From: Escherichia phage vB_EcoM_G50
Direction: 5' to 3' (one strand)
Length of the DNA: 64,000 nt
Sequence record: NC_054917.1
The position numbers and the translations under genes are program-made. Below the pieces are notes generated by a model, which did no database searches, was not told the origin of the DNA, and saw only the letters and a list, made by a program, of their open reading frames with translations. This document shows, piece after piece, positions 15,179 to 23,003 of the stretch. Each line of letters starts with the position of its first letter. The stretch's first letter is position 1.

Positions 15179-15182
15179 CAAT

Positions 15183-15210
15183 GGGGACCGAAAGGTCCCC
15201 ATATTTTTAT
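15183..15210. terminator. Bidirectional terminator hairpin between gene 54 and the 96-aa ORF
   Basis: ggggacc-gaaa-ggtcccc followed by T-rich tract. Confidence 0.55.
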
Positions 15211-15497
15211 TTACGGAATGAAATAAAAGCAGCAACTGAAGCAACTAAACTGTCTTCAATATAAACTTCAATTTTTACCGGAGCTTCTGACTCAAATTTA
15301 CCTGTTACTACACCTTGGAAAATACTTTCAGTCTGCTCTGGCTTTGAAAAATTTTCAGAAGGAAAAATTCCGAACTTTTTATCTGTTCCAAAAATTTTGA
15401 TAAATTCATCGTAAACTGCTTCATTAAAAGCATTATCAGCAGGAATAACGCCTTCAACTACAAGTTCTTGACCTAAAAAGCGTAAAGAAGATTTCAT
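15207..15497 (-). CDS. Hypothetical protein (T4 alt.-3 position)
   Basis: 96-aa ORF with GAGGAA Shine-Dalgarno; early-type promoter immediately upstream. Confidence 0.65.
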   Translation of the reverse strand: MKSSLRFLGQELVVEGVIPADNAFNEAVYDEFIKIFGTDKKFGIFPSENFSKPEQTESIFQGVVTGKFESEAPVKIEVYIEDSLVASVAAFISFRK

Positions 15498-15528: not shown

Positions 15529-15558
15529 ATTATAACACAACACGAGGGACTTGTAAAC
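15529..15558 (-). promoter_or_regulatory. Early-type promoter (-10 TATAAT, -35 GTTTAC) for the 96-aa ORF
   Basis: Plus strand attata ... 18 nt ... gtaaac; part of a ~56-bp segment nearly identical to 31281-31336. Confidence 0.45.
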
Positions 15559-17615
15559 TACATTTTGAACTTTTTAGACATTCCGTTGATGTTAACCAAA
15601 GAAGCCAAGATTTGAGAAACTTCGTTTTCCTCTTCTTTTGATTCTTCTACAAGGAATTGATTAAATCCAGCCATTGGACGAACTTCACCAGTTTCCATCA
15701 GATGATCGCCATCATATACCGATTCTTCTAATTGTTCAGAAGGAGGAACGATTGTGCCTTCGATTAAATACTTGTTATAAGCAGTTTCTTTCATCATGTA
15801 CGTGCTCACTTTATTAATCTTCAGCAAAATTCCACGCGGTAAAATAACTTCAGCTTCTGATGGAAATCCTGATAAATGACCTGGAACGATAACTTTGATT
15901 CGCTCAGCTCCTTTTATTACCATACCTACGCTAGTTTCAGCATCTTCATTAGCATATGCGGAATGACTACCCGTATGCATTAAATCTTCAGCATCAACTG
16001 AACCTTCTCCTTCACCAGAAAATACTGCACTGGAATCATCTAGGGCCATATAGTTTTTACCATACTCACCGAAGATATTTGGTTTAAGCGATGTGGATAC
16101 GAAGTTCTTGAAATAGAACATTTTATTTTCAATATTATGACGTAAAGTTTTAAAGGTAACTTCTTGTCCACGGTAAAGTGTAGTTCCTGGAGGAAGAACT
16201 GATCCTTTGGCAAAGGCAGAATCCATTGTCTCGATGTGTTTAATAGCTCGTTCCATGTATTCTTCACGGGTAGAATCTGGTTTACCCAAGAGGAACGAGT
16301 TCATTTCAACATATGAATCTGCACAATAATCTTCAATTACATCGGACTCAGCCTGAGTTAATCCTTTTGGGGGTACTTCAGTACTTGCATATTCATACGC
16401 TTGAGAAGCAGACTCATTAATCAATTTATAAATGCCATTCATGACAAATTGAATAATAGCTACCTTTTCATCTGGCGTGGCTTTAGAACCTTTAACTAAA
16501 TCATTGACAATTTTCTTAATAACATCAAAGCTATTAGAAATATTAATGTCAGCGAGATCGCTTAAAATTTTATCAGTTTTATAATCAAAAAATTCTTTAT
16601 TCTTTAAATATTCCTGAGAACCTTGATATGTTATATCGCTCTGTAACTTGATAGATGGATCACGTAAACGTGCATGAGCCAATGCAATATGATTTCGGAA
16701 GCTTTCTAATTCATAATCGCTAGATTTAAAACGAGAAGCACTTCTCATACCACCGATAGCTCCTTTGCTGAAGTTTGAACCAACCTGAATAACGCCAGAG
16801 TTCATTGGTCCTTCTGCTTTATATACCGGAACTTTAGATTCAAACTCTTGATATTTCTTAGCAGCGAAGCTATCACCCTGAAGTGAAGCATCGACAGTAG
16901 AATATTGAGCTTGTGCTGCTAATCGACGACTAATTTTAGTTTTCTGAATAACAGCTTGATCCGTACGCTTATCATTTTCTAAAGCAATAGAAGCAGCAAC
17001 AGCAACAGCTTTAGGAACAGCATTACCTGTTTTAACGTCTACATAAACATCACCAACCTTTGATTCAACCTTTGTGAATAACTCAGTTGAAATAGGAGGT
17101 ACACCTGGAATGTCTTCTAAATTGGCATTTTTACGGTAAACCATAATATATGTGTACTTTTTATCGTAATCCCAGATTTCCTTTAAAAGAACATATCGAC
17201 CTGCTCCTTTAGTACGCACTAAACGATCGGCAATAACTTGCATTTGACGAGCTGCACCGTTTGTTTTACTCTTTAATACGCGGAATAGGCATGCGTCAAT
17301 TTTGTACTGTTTCATTGTCTGAAGAGCAGTATCAAAAACCGCATTAATGACACCAATTGGATTTCCACCTAAGTTTTTAAGTTTAACTAATGATAGTTTC
17401 TCATTAACGCCTATCATTACGATATGCATCATTTTATCGCCTGGCTTAACGTTTTTATTTGTATCACCGCCAGAGGTGTATGTACAAAATCTAAATCCAG
17501 GAAGCACACTTTCTTCACCGGCTTGAATAGCAAAAATTTGAGGTATTTTATGCTTAGGATTTAAGTTAACAACCGGCGCCGAAGCGCCGTCAAATAATTC
17601 TGTAATAAGTTCCAT
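15558..17615 (-). CDS. Alt-like ADP-ribosyltransferase, second full-length paralog
   Basis: 685 aa; N-terminal ~300 aa closely parallel the adjacent Alt (MELITELFD..., CTYTSGGDTN, YKIDAC, QVIADRL); C-terminal ART signature YRG ... NFVSTSL ... AEVILPRG. Confidence 0.85.
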   Translation of the reverse strand: MELITELFDGASAPVVNLNPKHKIPQIFAIQAGEESVLPGFRFCTYTSGGDTNKNVKPGDKMMHIVMIGVNEKLSLVKLKNLGGNPIGVINAVFDTALQTMKQYKIDACLFRVLKSKTNGAARQMQVIADRLVRTKGAGRYVLLKEIWDYDKKYTYIMVYRKNANLEDIPGVPPISTELFTKVESKVGDVYVDVKTGNAVPKAVAVAASIALENDKRTDQAVIQKTKISRRLAAQAQYSTVDASLQGDSFAAKKYQEFESKVPVYKAEGPMNSGVIQVGSNFSKGAIGGMRSASRFKSSDYELESFRNHIALAHARLRDPSIKLQSDITYQGSQEYLKNKEFFDYKTDKILSDLADINISNSFDVIKKIVNDLVKGSKATPDEKVAIIQFVMNGIYKLINESASQAYEYASTEVPPKGLTQAESDVIEDYCADSYVEMNSFLLGKPDSTREEYMERAIKHIETMDSAFAKGSVLPPGTTLYRGQEVTFKTLRHNIENKMFYFKNFVSTSLKPNIFGEYGKNYMALDDSSAVFSGEGEGSVDAEDLMHTGSHSAYANEDAETSVGMVIKGAERIKVIVPGHLSGFPSEAEVILPRGILLKINKVSTYMMKETAYNKYLIEGTIVPPSEQLEESVYDGDHLMETGEVRPMAGFNQFLVEESKEEENEVSQILASLVNINGMSKKFKM

Positions 17616-17618
17616 GAT

Positions 17619-19715
17619 TTATCCTTGAACGAACTTGTAAGGCATGTTTGTAATATCTATGCAAGACGCAATAATTCCAAGAGATGATTCTACTTTCTGT
17701 TTAACATTTGATGAAACAAACGATGCAAAGTCAACTCTGTCTTCTATTTCAATATCATCTGTCATTGCAACTACTTCACCGGTTTCCATTAGACGGTCAC
17801 CGTCATAAATGACTGATTCGGTGAGCTCTTCTGTAGTCATAACTTCAGCTTGAATGAGTTTTGTATTATTAGATGTTGTTCCGTCATTATTAGAAGCATC
17901 AGTTATTTTATTAACTTTGACCATCAATCCGCGTGGTAGAATAACTTCAGCTTCTGTTGCTATTCCGAGACTTCCTGGATATACAACATTAACTTTATGA
18001 GCTCCATCAATTGCCCATCCTATTTGAACTTTAACGTATTCAGGATTTTCTTTATACGCTCTTATTTCGTTTGGATTAATAGTTATTCCTTCTTCATTTT
18101 TATCAACTGTTAATTCATTACGAGCTTCTGGTTCTAAAAGACCAATACCAGCATGCGTAATTCCAAAACGTCCAAAAATGATAGGAGTTAAAGAAGTAGA
18201 TACAAAATTTCTGAAATAGAACACTTTATTTTTAACTAGCGCTTCGTATATAGGAGCAGTCATACTTTGAGCACGATAAACTGTAATGCCTTCTGGTATA
18301 CGGTCACCATTTTCAAAAGCTGAATCTAAATTATTTATCGCAGATTCAATTTCTTTTTCACTCATTACATCATATCGTTCTGGATTGTAGCGGCCTAAAA
18401 GAAGATTATTGATGTCAGTATATCCTGATCCACAATACTCTCTAATGCCGCGCTTTTGTGATGGAGTATATTTAGAACCATCACGGGCAATAGTAATATC
18501 AATCATTGGACCTGCACCAATTCCAGAAAAGCTATAAATCATTCGTTTGAGGAATTTAGTTTTTGCTGCGTTCCAGGAATTTTTAGTTATTTCTTCCCAG
18601 ACTTCATCTGGCTGTCCTTTACGGGTTTTATTATGTTTATCAAGCCAATTATCTTTATATTCTTCAAAGAATTGATTAACAGCTGCTGCGTATTTCTCTA
18701 AACATTTTATTGAAGTGGTTGGTTCATTTTTAATCGCATTAAGAATTACATCTTTAATTTTTTCAGAAACTTCATTAACCTCACTTTTTGAAAAGAATTT
18801 ATAGTCATAGTGAAGTTCATCTGCGGTTCCTTCGGCAATGATTTTTGCTGCCTTAGTTTTAGAAGCTAATGAATTAATTCCAAGCTTCATTTCTTCTGCT
18901 TCGGGAATTAAAGGAGCTGTAGCAGGTTTATTGAAATTAGCTGCGGTAGATTCATATTTCTGGAATAATTCACTTTCAAATCTAGAAGATTCCAATGACT
19001 GACTTTGCGCAATTGCTCTACGGGAAATTTTAACTTTAACGATTACAGCTTGGTCAGAACGTTTATCGTTTTCTTGCGCAATAGATGCCGCAATTGCCTC
19101 ATTTTTAGTTACTTGAGCTCCAGTATCTTTATTGATATAAACATCGCCGACTTTCGATTCAACTTTAGTAAAGAGCTCGGTACTAATTTCCGGAACTCCT
19201 GGAATGTCTTCTAGTGATACATTTTTGCGATGTATAAGAATATATGCATACTTTTTATCGTAATCCCAGAGTTCCTTAAGAAGGACGTATCTGCCACCTG
19301 AACGACTGCGGATAAGTCTATCAGCAATAACTTGAATTTGTCGAGCTTGACCAGCAGTTTTAGACTTAAGAATACGAAGCATACAGGCATCAATTTTATA
19401 CTGACGCATCGTTTGCATCGCAACAGTAAAAACTGAATTGATGTAATTAATTGGGCTTGGACCGAGACCTTTCAATTTAGCAATTGAACCTTTAGCAGTT
19501 AATGTAAAAGGAACAATGTGCATCATTTTATCGCCCATCTTTAGATCACGGTTAGTATCACCTCCAGATGTATAGGTACATAAACGAAAGCCTGGTTGTT
19601 CAATTGCGTCATCAACATGAACTGAAAAAATTTGCGGTATTTTCTTCTTTGGATTTAAGTTTGTAATCGGAAGAGTAGTATCTTCGTCAAATAATTCTGT
19701 AATGAGTTCCATCAT
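17619..19715 (-). CDS. alt: Alt ADP-ribosyltransferase (head-packaged; modifies host RNA polymerase alpha)
   Basis: 698 aa, MMELITELFDEDTTLPITNLNPKKKIPQIF...; R-S-E type ART motifs (VYRAQ, FVSTSLTP, EAEVILPRG); position upstream of ligase as in T4; late promoter upstream. Confidence 0.9.
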   Translation of the reverse strand: MMELITELFDEDTTLPITNLNPKKKIPQIFSVHVDDAIEQPGFRLCTYTSGGDTNRDLKMGDKMMHIVPFTLTAKGSIAKLKGLGPSPINYINSVFTVAMQTMRQYKIDACMLRILKSKTAGQARQIQVIADRLIRSRSGGRYVLLKELWDYDKKYAYILIHRKNVSLEDIPGVPEISTELFTKVESKVGDVYINKDTGAQVTKNEAIAASIAQENDKRSDQAVIVKVKISRRAIAQSQSLESSRFESELFQKYESTAANFNKPATAPLIPEAEEMKLGINSLASKTKAAKIIAEGTADELHYDYKFFSKSEVNEVSEKIKDVILNAIKNEPTTSIKCLEKYAAAVNQFFEEYKDNWLDKHNKTRKGQPDEVWEEITKNSWNAAKTKFLKRMIYSFSGIGAGPMIDITIARDGSKYTPSQKRGIREYCGSGYTDINNLLLGRYNPERYDVMSEKEIESAINNLDSAFENGDRIPEGITVYRAQSMTAPIYEALVKNKVFYFRNFVSTSLTPIIFGRFGITHAGIGLLEPEARNELTVDKNEEGITINPNEIRAYKENPEYVKVQIGWAIDGAHKVNVVYPGSLGIATEAEVILPRGLMVKVNKITDASNNDGTTSNNTKLIQAEVMTTEELTESVIYDGDRLMETGEVVAMTDDIEIEDRVDFASFVSSNVKQKVESSLGIIASCIDITNMPYKFVQG

Positions 19716-19735: not shown

Positions 19736-19743
19736 TATTTATA
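19736..19743 (-). promoter_or_regulatory. Late promoter (TATAAATA on minus strand) for alt
   Basis: Plus-strand tatttata ~20 nt upstream of alt start. Confidence 0.55.
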
Positions 19744-19748
19744 AAATT

Positions 19749-19766
19749 AAAGGCCCGAAGGCCTTT
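19749..19766 (-). terminator. Hairpin between ligase operon and alt
   Basis: aaaggcc-cgaa-ggccttt. Confidence 0.45.
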
Positions 19767-19953
19767 AATAATCTAATGGTAAGAGAGTACGATATATTTC
19801 AAACTTTGGACCTTTTTCATAGGCATCAAATGTTTCTGTGAATTTATTATAAGCATATGCATCTATAAATTCAATCATAATTTGTGATACAGAAGTAGAA
19901 ACATCTCCACCTTCTTTTTGAGCAACGACAATTGTTTCTAAGTAAGCTTTCAT
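19765..19953 (-). CDS. Hypothetical protein
   Basis: 62-aa ORF whose start overlaps the ligase stop; terminator hairpin just downstream. Confidence 0.5.
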   Translation of the reverse strand: MKAYLETIVVAQKEGGDVSTSVSQIMIEFIDAYAYNKFTETFDAYEKGPKFEIYRTLLPLDY

Positions 19954-21413
19954 AGACCAGTTACCTCATGAAAATCACCAAATACATCCTCGAATGTATT
20001 AGCTTTAGTTTTATCTTCACGTAAACGAATCGCAATCGGAAGAAATAATTTAACGTAATCAGTGCGGCCATCAGATTTTAACCAACCGTTGCATTCGCAC
20101 TCTAGAATTTTTCCAATATAATAATTTTGGTTTTCCATAATGCGAGTACGGTCAAGTTCATGCGATTTTACACCGGCTTTATCTTTTAAGCCTGAACCTG
20201 CATTTACTTTAATTTTTCCACACTCTGATTCAAGAATAAATCCACCAGCTTTAGTAGGGTCTTTACGGTGAGGATAAATTCCTACAATTTTTAAATCAAC
20301 ATCAATTACTTCTTTAAATTTATAGAGATTTTTTGAACGAGCATTTTCCCACAATCCGTCGGTATTTTTGAGAATAATACCTTCAAAACCTTGGTCAATA
20401 TATTTTTTATAAATTACCTTAGCTTCATCTAGGTTATTTACTACTTGGTTTTCAATTAAAATTACTTTATCATATCCTGATGTCATTTGTTCTAGTTTAG
20501 AAAAACGTACATCATATTTTAAACGAAACGCCGGAAGACCGTATATTTCTACCAACGGGACATAATCCCAGACCTGAAACTTCATGCATTTGGCTTCTTT
20601 TTCGGAAATGGTTCCTTTTAAGGATTTATTAGCGATTCCATTAGAAGTAGTACGAGATTCCGCTACTTCGGCGAATTCTTTAGCTTTACTAATTTCAGGA
20701 TAAGCATCAAAAAGAAAATCTAGGCCTTCTGGTTCCTTTTTAACTTGCTCATGGTATACCAATTCGCCATCAATTAACACACCTTCTGGATGAATCTGGC
20801 GGGCTTCAGCAGTCATTTTGATTAATTCTTCCTTAAGAAGATCTAATCCTAGATATTCATTACCAGCTCGTGATAAAAGACGAACATCATCTAATTCATC
20901 ACCTCGAACTTCAGCAAAACACCGAGATCCATCTGCTTTTAACTGTGCAAAAGCTGGAAACTTGATATTCTTACTAATGCCTTTTTCATCATAAGAACTT
21001 GCCAGCATTTGAGGTTGTTCAGGAATTAAACCTGGCCAAACTTTGTTTGCAATAGATACTGAAGCACCGCATTCAAGGTCTCGCATCATCACTCGACGCA
21101 AAACTTCAACATCATCCTTTTTACCATCGGTGATATATCCAGTCAATTCCTCAATTGCAGCATTTCCAGTCAATTTCCGAGTAGCTAACGTGAATTCAAT
21201 GAAGTCAAGCATATCGGTAATAGTCAGCATTCCAAAACTCTGGGTAGCAATACCAGGTTTAGGCCATTTCTTTATATAATACTGTAACCCACGAGAATAA
21301 GTCAGACGATATACCCGTTTAAGCAATTCATTATCTTTATTCTTTTCAAGAATTGCTTGCTTCTGCTTAGTTGATCCAATAGATGCTATTTCATTCAGAA
21401 TTTTAAGAATCAT
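19950..21413 (-). CDS. 30: ATP-dependent DNA ligase gp30
   Basis: 487 aa, MILKILNEIASIGSTKQKQAILEKNKDNELLKRVYRLTYSRGLQYYIKKWPKPG...; KADG adenylation motif; near-identical to remembered T4 DNA ligase. Confidence 0.97.
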   Translation of the reverse strand: MILKILNEIASIGSTKQKQAILEKNKDNELLKRVYRLTYSRGLQYYIKKWPKPGIATQSFGMLTITDMLDFIEFTLATRKLTGNAAIEELTGYITDGKKDDVEVLRRVMMRDLECGASVSIANKVWPGLIPEQPQMLASSYDEKGISKNIKFPAFAQLKADGSRCFAEVRGDELDDVRLLSRAGNEYLGLDLLKEELIKMTAEARQIHPEGVLIDGELVYHEQVKKEPEGLDFLFDAYPEISKAKEFAEVAESRTTSNGIANKSLKGTISEKEAKCMKFQVWDYVPLVEIYGLPAFRLKYDVRFSKLEQMTSGYDKVILIENQVVNNLDEAKVIYKKYIDQGFEGIILKNTDGLWENARSKNLYKFKEVIDVDLKIVGIYPHRKDPTKAGGFILESECGKIKVNAGSGLKDKAGVKSHELDRTRIMENQNYYIGKILECECNGWLKSDGRTDYVKLFLPIAIRLREDKTKANTFEDVFGDFHEVTGL

Positions 21414-21679
21414 TGTTCATCCTTCAGAGTTTGATTTACAGCTCTATTATAAATCAATTCATCATTAAGCTCAGGCAAAGACTTATGATATGTAGTTCTA
21501 ACTTTATTTCCTTGCATCCAGTGCTTGACATAAATGAAACCTTGCTCTACACATTTTTTAAAAATTCGTTCGTCTTTTTGAGCTCGGAATTCTGGATTGC
21601 ATCTAAAAAATTGATTTACGTGACCGTAATCACGTGTAGTATTACCTTCATTTTCATAAATAGTGTGAACGACAAACAT
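21410..21679 (-). CDS. Hypothetical protein (T4 30.1 position)
   Basis: 89-aa ORF, start overlaps next ORF stop. Confidence 0.65.
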   Translation of the reverse strand: MFVVHTIYENEGNTTRDYGHVNQFFRCNPEFRAQKDERIFKKCVEQGFIYVKHWMQGNKVRTTYHKSLPELNDELIYNRAVNQTLKDEQ

Positions 21680-22542
21680 TAGAATGCTCCTTGGAAAATA
21701 TTATCACCACTAGTAAATCTATTAAAATACCCTGCATCGCCAGGCTTGGTATAACTCCACGTATGGAATGGATTCATATGATATGGGTGTGTATAATATG
21801 GATTATATGGATGTGTATAATATGGATTATACGGATTAAATCCAGGAGTTCTCCAGGTAGTGTTCCAACGAAAAGAATCGTTTTTAACCATCTTCTCAAT
21901 TACATCTTTTATAGCTTTTTCACTATCAAAACTTTCTTTATTTTCCTTTGGTGAAAAAAGCTTATTTTCTACATCATTCCATGTATAAACTCGCTGAGCG
22001 GTTTTTGGAATATTGTCACGCTCTCCTCGCGCCATCCAATAAACAGGAACATTTAATATTTCACTCGCATGATCGCAATGGTGAGCGAGATCGTCAATGT
22101 AACAAATTACGTTATATTTCTCTTTTGCCTTTTTGAACAACTCTTCTTTTGAAGAATCATGACCACACATCATTACTTCTGAGAAGGCACCAGGAAAAAG
22201 AGCATTCAAATTAAATTGACGATTCAACAGAGCGTCAATAGAATCACCCAATGCTGTAACAGCTACAAAATTATAATCTTCTTTTAATTTGTTAATTACA
22301 CACAGGGCATCTTTATACGGAGACAAATAACGAATAAAATCTGAACGATTGTATTTTTCAATTAACTTGACGCCAAGTTCTTCATCACAATTAAAGAGTT
22401 TACCTGGAGAAATAAATTTCTCATCTTGGATCATTTTTAAAATATGTTCTAACGGAAGATTATATTTCTGAGCAAAATAAGGAAGGCCTGATTGCCAGCT
22501 TAAACATACTCCATCAATATCAGTTAAAATAGTAGGCTTCAT
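21679..22542 (-). CDS. HAD-superfamily-like hydrolase (T4 30.2 position) with C-terminal Tyr/Pro-rich tandem repeat
   Basis: 287 aa; N-terminal DIDGV (HAD motif I-like), YIDD late motif; C-terminus NPYNPYYTHPYNPYYTHPYHMNPF. Confidence 0.7.
   Translation of the reverse strand: MKPTILTDIDGVCLSWQSGLPYFAQKYNLPLEHILKMIQDEKFISPGKLFNCDEELGVKLIEKYNRSDFIRYLSPYKDALCVINKLKEDYNFVAVTALGDSIDALLNRQFNLNALFPGAFSEVMMCGHDSSKEELFKKAKEKYNVICYIDDLAHHCDHASEILNVPVYWMARGERDNIPKTAQRVYTWNDVENKLFSPKENKESFDSEKAIKDVIEKMVKNDSFRWNTTWRTPGFNPYNPYYTHPYNPYYTHPYHMNPFHTWSYTKPGDAGYFNRFTSGDNIFQGAF
21784..21831 (-). repeat. 24-bp tandem repeat (2 copies, 1 mismatch) within the HAD-like ORF
   Basis: tgggtgtgtataatatggattata followed by tggatgtgtataatatggattata. 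Confidence 0.8.
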
Positions 22543-23003
22543 AGAGAGTCTCTTAATAGATTTAACACATCAATAAATTCAGCTTCGGTTAGTATTGTAT
22601 CATCTTTTGTTAGACCACTAGCCATGCTGTGCTTCAAAACTTTTCCTTTCGAGGCTTGTAATGCATCGCGAAAGCCCTTGTTTTGGAACGCTGCTTCAAA
22701 ATATGCATTTGTGTATAATTCTTTCCATGCTTCGGAATATCTTGAAAACGGAGTTCCAAGCCAGAACAACGTGCCACGGTCCTGAGCTCTTGCATAAGAC
22801 CTTCCAGCTTGTTGGGCGGCAAGCCCGGATAACCCAAATATACGACGCTGTTGTTCAACATTTTTCACCTTGCATCCTTGGAGGAATCCTTCGAGACCTC
22901 CAAATTGGATACCATCCATAACAAAAGGCCATTGGGCGAAATTACTTAATGCACATGATGGCCATCTAAAATTGCTTCTAATCTCTAACTCAGACATTTT
23001 CAA
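22539..23003 (-). CDS. NADAR / YbiA-like (DUF1768) protein (T4 30.3 position)
   Basis: 154 aa; SNFAQWPF..DG..F...EGFLQGCK pattern resembles E. coli YbiA SNFAAWPI..DG....SEHYFQAQK. Confidence 0.7.
   Translation of the reverse strand: MKMSELEIRSNFRWPSCALSNFAQWPFVMDGIQFGGLEGFLQGCKVKNVEQQRRIFGLSGLAAQQAGRSYARAQDRGTLFWLGTPFSRYSEAWKELYTNAYFEAAFQNKGFRDALQASKGKVLKHSMASGLTKDDTILTEAEFIDVLNLLRDSL

Follow-up and report, generated by a model that had tools for sequence, protein, structure and literature searches.

The Alt protein of bacteriophage T4 (gpAlt; NP_049811) is an NAD+--arginine ADP-ribosyltransferase (ART) of the R-S-E type that is built into the prohead core, is carried in ~40 copies per head, and is injected into the host together with the DNA (PMC9026906). 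It is the product of a late gene (PMC9697503) that is non-essential (PMC9026906). The gp21 protease cuts it after ITE-6 and LTE-619, sites that were mapped by mass spectrometry, with the loss of 63 amino acids (aa) at the C-terminus (PMC5694885). In assays of T4 Alt, the one family member studied in this way, the E577A mutant is inactive, which shows that the second Glu of E-x-E is essential; besides its enzymatic role, Alt has been assigned one as a protein of the core (PMC11404850). In the T4 genome (NC_000866), the alt gene (682 aa) is followed by two short open reading frames (ORFs), alt.-1 (61 aa) and alt.-2 (67 aa), whose origin the annotation sees in an old duplication of the start of alt; Nolan et al. 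listed paralogs of alt among T4-like phages already in 2006 (PMC1524935). Here we describe the alt locus of Escherichia phage vB_EcoM_G50 (NC_054917.1), as seen in the window, i.e., the entire 64,000-nucleotide stretch that was analyzed. The window is a T4-like (Tequatrovirus) segment that shares ~98% identity with a number of Escherichia and Shigella phages, and in it alt is followed by a second full-length gene, referred to below as Alt2.

We consider it probable that Alt2 is a functional, anciently duplicated paralog of the injected T-even enzyme Alt, expressed late, packaged into the head, processed, injected, and directed at targets of its own. The evidence comes from the two proteins themselves, from the selection acting on Alt2 and its distribution, and from published transposon sequencing of a close relative.

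Two Alt-family proteins and their domains

A first-pass annotation of this stretch had listed ORFs of 685 aa (15558..17615) and 698 aa (17619..19715), separated by 3 nt. Both are present at those coordinates, and both lie on the minus strand, which that annotation did not give. For the upstream gene, alt, the second ATG (19710-19712) is the most likely start, which yields a protein of 697 aa (17619..19712): this Met is the annotated start of T4 alt, it stands at a better distance from the GAGG box, and the first ATG is missing in phage HEMP5. The inactive T4 mutant was published as E577A, whereas counting along the 682-aa NP_049811 puts the second Glu of E-x-E at position 576; this immaterial one-residue offset is consistent with numbering from the upstream ATG (MMELITE).

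Aligned pairwise, as the first-pass annotation had proposed, Alt and Alt2 are 40% identical over their full length (BLASTP, E = 7e-157), and the downstream protein retains the Arg/Ser-Thr-Ser/Glu triad with no frameshift. Both match Pfam family PF03496 (ADPrib_exo_Tox), Alt2 with 73 bits (E = 2.7e-20) and Alt with 129 bits (E = 1.8e-37), at a cut-off of 23.4 bits, and both match PHROG 802 ("Alt-like RNA polymerase ADP-ribosyltransferase"), in the case of Alt2 over residues 1-685 with E = 2.8e-255. Precomputed annotation places the N-terminal family PF26846 (Tevenvirinae_ADPRT) on every close homolog, as well as on the two genes of each of the loci L017 and L018 (the latter from phage JS10), and the window protein is assigned to it through these homologs. 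No NCBIfam model matches either protein. The family is small, with 114 clusters at 50% identity among 1.8 billion representatives.

The catalytic motifs are YRAQ (R480), FVSTSL (S505-T-S507), and EAEVILPRG (E587-A-E589) in Alt and YRGQ (R482), FVSTSL (S507-T-S509), and EAEVILPRG (E587-A-E589) in Alt2, so the earlier statement that both proteins end in an R-S-E domain with such motifs holds on both profile and motif evidence. In a 20-member family alignment (42-96% identity), the Arg, the two Ser of S-T-S, and the two Glu of E-x-E do not vary, and the Thr is present in at least 90% of the members; altb of phage JS10 has S-A-S in place of S-T-S.

Similarity between the two copies is unevenly distributed. 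Their first 9 residues are the same, and the strongly similar N-terminal part is ~70% identical. It extends over ~238 aa, and not over the ~300 aa originally estimated. Divergence had been placed in a central linker. The center has indeed diverged, but so have the ART cores, which are only ~35-45% identical, and the center is not a linker but a folded helical domain. Profile-profile comparison of the two centers (Alt2 residues 239-420) detected no similarity (hhalign probability 0.45%). AlphaFold models of both proteins show the center as a folded, all-helical region with a similar run of helices, with predicted local distance difference test (pLDDT) values of ~80-90 in Alt2 and ~72-90 in Alt. 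We considered whether the center could be a non-homologous insertion; while hhalign found nothing, both models have the same helix run, and extreme divergence of a single fold is at least as likely.

The Alt2 model (mean pLDDT, 76.9) consists of an alpha/beta N-domain (residues 12-238), an all-helical part (239-470), and the beta-core of the ART (480-622), and confidence is low at the two ends alone (residues 1-11 and 630-685). Combined with the alignment and the homolog annotation, it allows the following delineation of the gene, all on the minus strand. Codons 1-6 (17598..17615) encode MELITE, a predicted N-terminal propeptide that is the same as in Alt and ends in the gp21 motif ITE-6. The alpha/beta domain covered by PF26846 (aa 7-238) occupies 16902..17597, and the central helical domain (aa 239-470), delimited from the model and the hhalign comparison, occupies 16206..16901. 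The catalytic core (aa 471-628) lies at 15732..16205, with R482 at 16170-16172, S507-T508-S509 at 16089-16097, and E587-A588-E589 at 15849-15857. The remainder (15561..15731) contains the gp21-type motif LEE-631 (15723-15731) and a predicted C-terminal propeptide of 54 aa, as judged from the motif, the family alignment, and the model.

A sequence search found no solved structure for Alt2, and the best structural match of its ART fold is the arginine-specific toxin Vis. E-x-E is an established signature of arginine-directed R-S-E enzymes, and together with the Vis-like fold it suggests that Alt2 has arginine specificity. Judged from the sequences, alt and Alt2 are intact genes for R-S-E ADP-ribosyltransferases of the Alt family; by profile, motifs, fold, and locus, Alt2 falls into the R-S-E ART clade, the T-even Alt family, and the Alt2/altb group.

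Selection, distribution, and age of the duplication

At the DNA level, alt.-1 and alt.-2 of T4 (NP_049810 and NP_049809) match the first ~117 codons of Alt2 almost perfectly. A 1-nt deletion in an A-run ends the alt.-1 frame, and a deletion of ~1.69 kb, corresponding to 15579..17266 of the window (minus strand) and bounded by the imperfect 9-bp repeats TTAAAGAGT and CTAAAAAGT (microhomology), joins codon ~117 to the last few codons out of frame, so that the entire ART domain is gone. By this comparison, alt.-1/alt.-2 is a decayed remnant of Alt2. The first-pass annotation had pointed to the two short T4 ORFs and taken them for the remains of a decayed paralog, and on both counts it was right.

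Since T4 and 90 other records keep only the frameshifted, deleted remnant, the gene can clearly be lost, and one has to ask whether Alt2, too, is degenerating or without function, its frame having stayed open in this phage by chance. The selection analysis effectively refutes this idea, to which we give next to no credence. Ten Alt2 orthologs are all exactly 685 aa long and align without gaps, even though their pairwise synonymous divergence (dS) reaches 0.27, with nonsynonymous divergence (dN) near 0.01. The median dN/dS is 0.041, with 0.014 in the N-domain, 0.069 in the center, 0.037 in the ART core, and 0.029 in the C-terminal tail, all four regions thus being under strong purifying selection. 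The catalytic residues are invariant across genera, an ortholog is conserved in the Dhakavirus JS10, and transposon insertions are under-represented in the ortholog from phage Bas37. The earlier description of the second gene as intact is thereby borne out, and the pattern of selection shows Alt2 to be a working gene.

In a census of the GenBank phage collection, a full-length paralog was found at the DNA level in ~400 of the ~500-540 Tequatrovirus records, including T2, T6, and RB18, and its N-domain is encoded at an identity of at least 95% in 395 records. The contiguous T4-type deletion junction is present in just 91 of 498 records; a scan of IMG/VR yielded just 5 loci. The intact pair is the majority state of the genus, and T4 belongs to the minority. 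The orthologs in Bas37, T2, T6, RB18, and ime09 are 685 aa long, 97-99% identical, and located 3 nt downstream of alt. That of Bas37 (Escherichia phage KarlGJung of the BASEL collection), bas37_0032, is 98.4% identical to the window protein and is named "ADP-ribosyltransferase Alt2"; other GenBank labels include "Alt-like RNA polymerase ADP-ribosyltransferase" (twice), "alt_2", "alt.-2" (ime09), and "altb" (JS10). The rarity of the pair that the first-pass annotation implied is therefore wrong: hundreds of genomes carry annotations for both genes, and, as a sequence feature, the pair is neither new nor surprising to specialists.

The divergence between alt and Alt2 is saturated (dS of 1.1-3.3), the N-domain included, and this led us to reject a recent duplication, or gene conversion continuing into the recent past, as the source of the N-terminal similarity. 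The tandem pair is also found in JS10, where a DUF5498 gene again lies downstream, and in a metagenomic contig. In neighbor-joining trees (without bootstrap) of the ART core and of the center, the window Alt2 clusters with JS10 altb and with the sequences L017_down, P0011, and P0013/14. Saturated dS, the presence of the same pair in other genera, and the clustering of the downstream copies together argue for an old duplication of which both copies have been retained. The N-domains cluster by genus, such that the two copies in one genome are more alike than orthologs across genera.

Single genes in two phages combine parts of both copies. Yersinia phage PST (L009 3001-5061) has residues 1 to ~90 of Alt followed by the rest of Alt2, and the Tequatrovirus NIC06P2 (L010 3001-5064) has Alt residues 1 to ~635 followed by the tail of Alt2. 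From their sequences, these look like deletions that arose by recombination between the homologous ends of alt and Alt2, and such swaps indicate that the N- and C-terminal modules of the two genes are interchangeable.

The window alt is itself a mosaic. It belongs to a class of 697-aa alleles shared with T2, T6, RB18, and Bas37 (99.6% identity to Bas37 Alt). Compared with T4 Alt, it is 70-72% identical overall, with 100% identity in the N-domain, ~30% in the center, and ~53% in the ART core. Over residues ~400-640, its center and ART core are 85-97% identical to the upstream alt of JS10 (80% at the DNA level over nt 681-1937), whereas the N-domains of these two proteins are only 32-55% identical. 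This pattern suggests that the effector cassette of alt has been exchanged between genera, with the N-domain staying genus-specific.

Predicted packaging, processing, and role of Alt2

The motifs ITE-6 and LEE-631 of Alt2 align with the mapped T4 cleavage sites ITE-6 and LTE-619, an alignment that speaks only to the presence of the motifs; those of the window Alt are ITE-6 and LTE-632. Both predicted Alt2 propeptides correspond to the low-confidence, disordered ends of the AlphaFold model, and the C-terminal one contains the family-invariant tail motif E-S-x-YDGD-x-LMETGE and the terminal K-F. A T4-type late promoter box, TATAAATA, lies at 19736..19743 (minus strand), 20 nt ahead of the first alt ATG, and is the single copy of this box in the alt-Alt2-alt.-3 locus. 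The alt stop codon TAA (17619-17621) is separated by a 3-nt gap (17616-17618) from the Alt2 ATG (17613-17615), and a Shine-Dalgarno sequence, AAGGA (17622..17626, minus strand), can be read within the final alt codons, with 6 nt between it and the Alt2 start. A consensus scan of the locus found no terminator-like site between the two genes.

These features make the following scheme the most likely one. With one TATAAATA box upstream of alt, a gap of 3 nt, a Shine-Dalgarno sequence of its own for Alt2, and no terminator in between, alt and Alt2 would be co-transcribed late. The Alt2 precursor would be built into the prohead core, as Alt is, through the shared N-domain, presumably a head-core or packaging adapter, and the terminal propeptides. 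gp21 would trim it after ITE-6 and LEE-631 to a mature enzyme of ~69 kDa, which would be carried in the head, injected with the DNA, and mono-ADP-ribosylate arginines of host proteins with NAD+ as the donor. Alt and Alt2 would be complementary rather than redundant.

Experimental evidence for different roles comes from HIDEN-SEQ transposon sequencing of Bas37 (preprint 10.1101/2025.11.20.689424), a phage in which identity to the window proteins is 99.6% for Alt and 98.4% for Alt2. Alt2 (bas37_0032) was hit at 116 of 164 TA sites (saturation, 0.71; classified as Intermediate), with a mean of 44.5 reads on Escherichia coli K-12, whereas Alt (bas37_0033) was hit at 164 of 179 (0.92; Non-essential), with 203.6 reads. 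The neighbors alt.-3 and alt.1 were hit at 19 of 20 and 17 of 18 sites (0.95 and 0.94; both Non-essential), with 170-198 reads. On CFE331, a clinical strain that carries Mokosh type I defense, the log2 fold change was -1.56 for Alt (adjusted p = 0), +0.12 for Alt2 (p = 0.66), and +0.24 and +0.03 for alt.-3 and alt.1. Thus, only Alt insertions are depleted on CFE331, and Alt2 insertions carry a baseline cost on K-12; from this contrast, the two enzymes are not redundant. The same preprint reports that against Mokosh type I, T4 Alt complements and Bas37 Alt does not (10.1101/2025.11.20.689424). The first-pass annotation had suggested that the two enzymes might have different host targets, with which the CFE331 result agrees. 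Since the helical center and the ART core of Alt2 differ strongly from those of Alt, the target set of Alt2 most likely differs as well.

The low transposon tolerance of Alt2 is open to another reading, in which Alt2 is mainly a structural or scaffolding part of the prohead core, its ART activity being irrelevant or lost, and disruption acts through head assembly. The N-domain is the most constrained region (dN/dS, 0.014), Alt has a described core role besides its enzymatic one (PMC11404850), and intermediate tolerance on K-12, a host without most defense systems, would fit a role in assembly. The ART core, however, is under strong purifying selection too (dN/dS, 0.037), with R, S-T-S, and E-x-E invariant, and T4 makes normal heads without Alt2, alt being non-essential (PMC9026906); on balance, we regard a purely structural role as improbable.

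Several other points weigh against a functional, injected Alt2 with targets of its own. In the literature searched, we found no publication on virion proteomics or function of Alt2 and no direct evidence that it is present in virions, cleaved, injected, or active; an apparent match to "altB" was a text artifact of "Alt^Bas37". T4 and 90 other records lack Alt2, so it is dispensable in at least some backgrounds. The reduced tolerance of Bas37 Alt2 to transposon insertion might be due to truncated products that are harmful because they interfere with the assembly of heads, and not to the loss of an enzymatic function. Finally, arginine specificity would follow only from the E-x-E motif and the fold neighbors, and T4 ModB, another R-S-E enzyme, can use NAD-capped RNA (bioRxiv 10.1101/2021.06.04.446905), so the chemistry could differ.

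This last point raises the possibility that Alt2 has R-S-E activity without being a mono-ADP-ribosyltransferase specific for arginines of proteins, acting instead by RNAylation or on a nucleic acid or small molecule, or that it works late in the infected cell rather than after injection. Besides the ModB precedent, the structure of its best match, Vis, was crystallized with agmatine, a small guanidino compound, and the 77-residue stretch between S-T-S and E-x-E of Alt2 contains a copy-type-specific acidic insert that is not found in classical toxins. Against this, Alt2 shares with Alt the architecture, both propeptide motifs, and the late promoter, which argues for a packaged-and-injected cycle, and the E-x-E signature points to arginine. 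We therefore view a different chemistry or timing as unlikely, if a little less so than a merely structural role, and retain the explanation that Alt2 is an injected paralog of Alt.

A broader interpretation can be offered tentatively, as something a shade short of an even bet: the alt locus would be a modular "adapter plus swappable warhead", in which a genus-specific N-domain and propeptides load the head and cassettes made of the helical center and the ART core are exchanged between genes, alleles, and genera, Alt2 being one more effector that is injected and that hits a host target of its own. The cassette that the window Alt shares with JS10 alt and the chimeras of PST and NIC06P2 fit this view. 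As the target of Alt2, one could think of a housekeeping process or of a defense other than the Mokosh type I countered by Alt; a separate target would explain the fitness cost of Alt2 disruption even on E. coli K-12.

Locus layout and comparison with known systems

The locus lies where the convergent plus-strand baseplate genes gp29-gp48-gp54 meet the minus-strand genes gp30, alt.1, alt, Alt2, and alt.-3, and the gene order between gp30/alt.1 and alt.-3/gp54 is the same in T4, T2, T6, RB18, and JS10. Upstream of alt, the ORF list and annotation place the DNA ligase gene gp30 at 19950..21413 and alt.1 at 19765..19953 (both minus strand). A G+C-rich hairpin, AAAGGCC-TTCG-GGCCTTT (19749..19766, minus strand), overlaps the alt.1 stop codon and is followed by a T-rich run; this terminator-like element, just upstream of the alt promoter, was read from the sequence and was not listed by the consensus scan. 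Directly after the Alt2 stop codon, both reading and scan recognize a sigma-70-type promoter (15529..15557, minus strand) with TTTACA, a 17-nt spacer, TATAAT, and an extended -10 TG, matching at 11 of 12 positions, which presumably drives alt.-3. The latter (15207..15497, minus strand) encodes a 96-aa DUF5498 protein and is the conserved downstream neighbor of the pair. A bidirectional hairpin terminator (15181..15202) between the convergent gp54 and alt.-3, likewise seen in the sequence and in the scan, closes the alt-Alt2-alt.-3 unit.

The HIDEN-SEQ supplement shows the alt.-3 ortholog bas37_0031 as depleted on uropathogenic E. coli CFT073 (log2 fold change of -2.70, adjusted p = 0.02), a hint that alt.-3 may act in a host-specific way. 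Beyond the ligase gene, a 30.2-like ORF (21679..22542, minus strand; T4 gp30.2, 837 nt) encodes 287 aa, with the direct peptide repeat NPYNPYYTHPY NPYYTHPY in its C-terminal part. The ortholog of T4 30.3 (22539..23003, minus strand) starts with TTG and is named adfN (anti-DarTG1 NADAR) in the HIDEN-SEQ preprint; a 75-aa out-of-frame ORF inside it (22634..22861, minus strand) corresponds to the annotated 30.3' of T4.

Nearly all knowledge of Alt comes from T4, the one well-studied T-even phage in which the second enzyme has been lost. In nature, most T4-like phages, among them many that have been proposed for therapy, probably inject two different ADP-ribosyltransferases. The Alt allele of the window differs from that of T4 across the whole effector part, and the published genetics show that Alt variants are not interchangeable against Mokosh type I and that Alt2 makes a separate contribution to fitness. 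The targets of Alt2, once identified, would fill a gap in the picture of host takeover and counter-defense.

Among known systems, Alt2 is most readily compared with T4 Alt. The two share an N-terminal Tevenvirinae_ADPRT domain, a helical center, an R-S-E ART core, and a C-terminal propeptide, as well as the first 9 residues, ITE-6, an aligned L-x-E C-terminal site, and the same slot between ligase/alt.1 and alt.-3/gp54. They differ in that they are only ~42% identical, with no detectable sequence homology in the center, ART cores that are ~35-45% identical, and a different insert between S-T-S and E-x-E; the Bas37 ortholog of Alt2 also has a genetic phenotype distinct from that of Alt. From Bas37 Alt2 and the "Alt-like" second genes of T2, T6, RB18, and ime09, the window gene does not differ in substance, being another allele. 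T4 alt.-1/alt.-2 corresponds to codons 1 to ~117 of Alt2 and, unlike the intact gene of the window, is split by a frameshift and has lost the ART domain to a deletion.

The altb gene of JS10 and IME08 resembles Alt2 in its position downstream of alt, its DUF5498 neighbor, and its clustering with Alt2 in the trees of the ART core and the center. However, JS10 altb is only 48% identical to Alt2, and its N-domain is closer to that of the JS10 alt. More remotely, the bacterial R-S-E toxins Vis, C3, VIP2, iota Ia, and CDTa share with Alt2 the ART fold and the three catalytic motifs. They are only ~15-22% identical to it, and, whereas such toxins rely on secretion or a binary toxin pore, Alt2 is predicted to be delivered in the phage head. 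The N-terminal and helical domains and the propeptides removed by a protease are specific to the T-even proteins and are not found in the bacterial R-S-E toxins.

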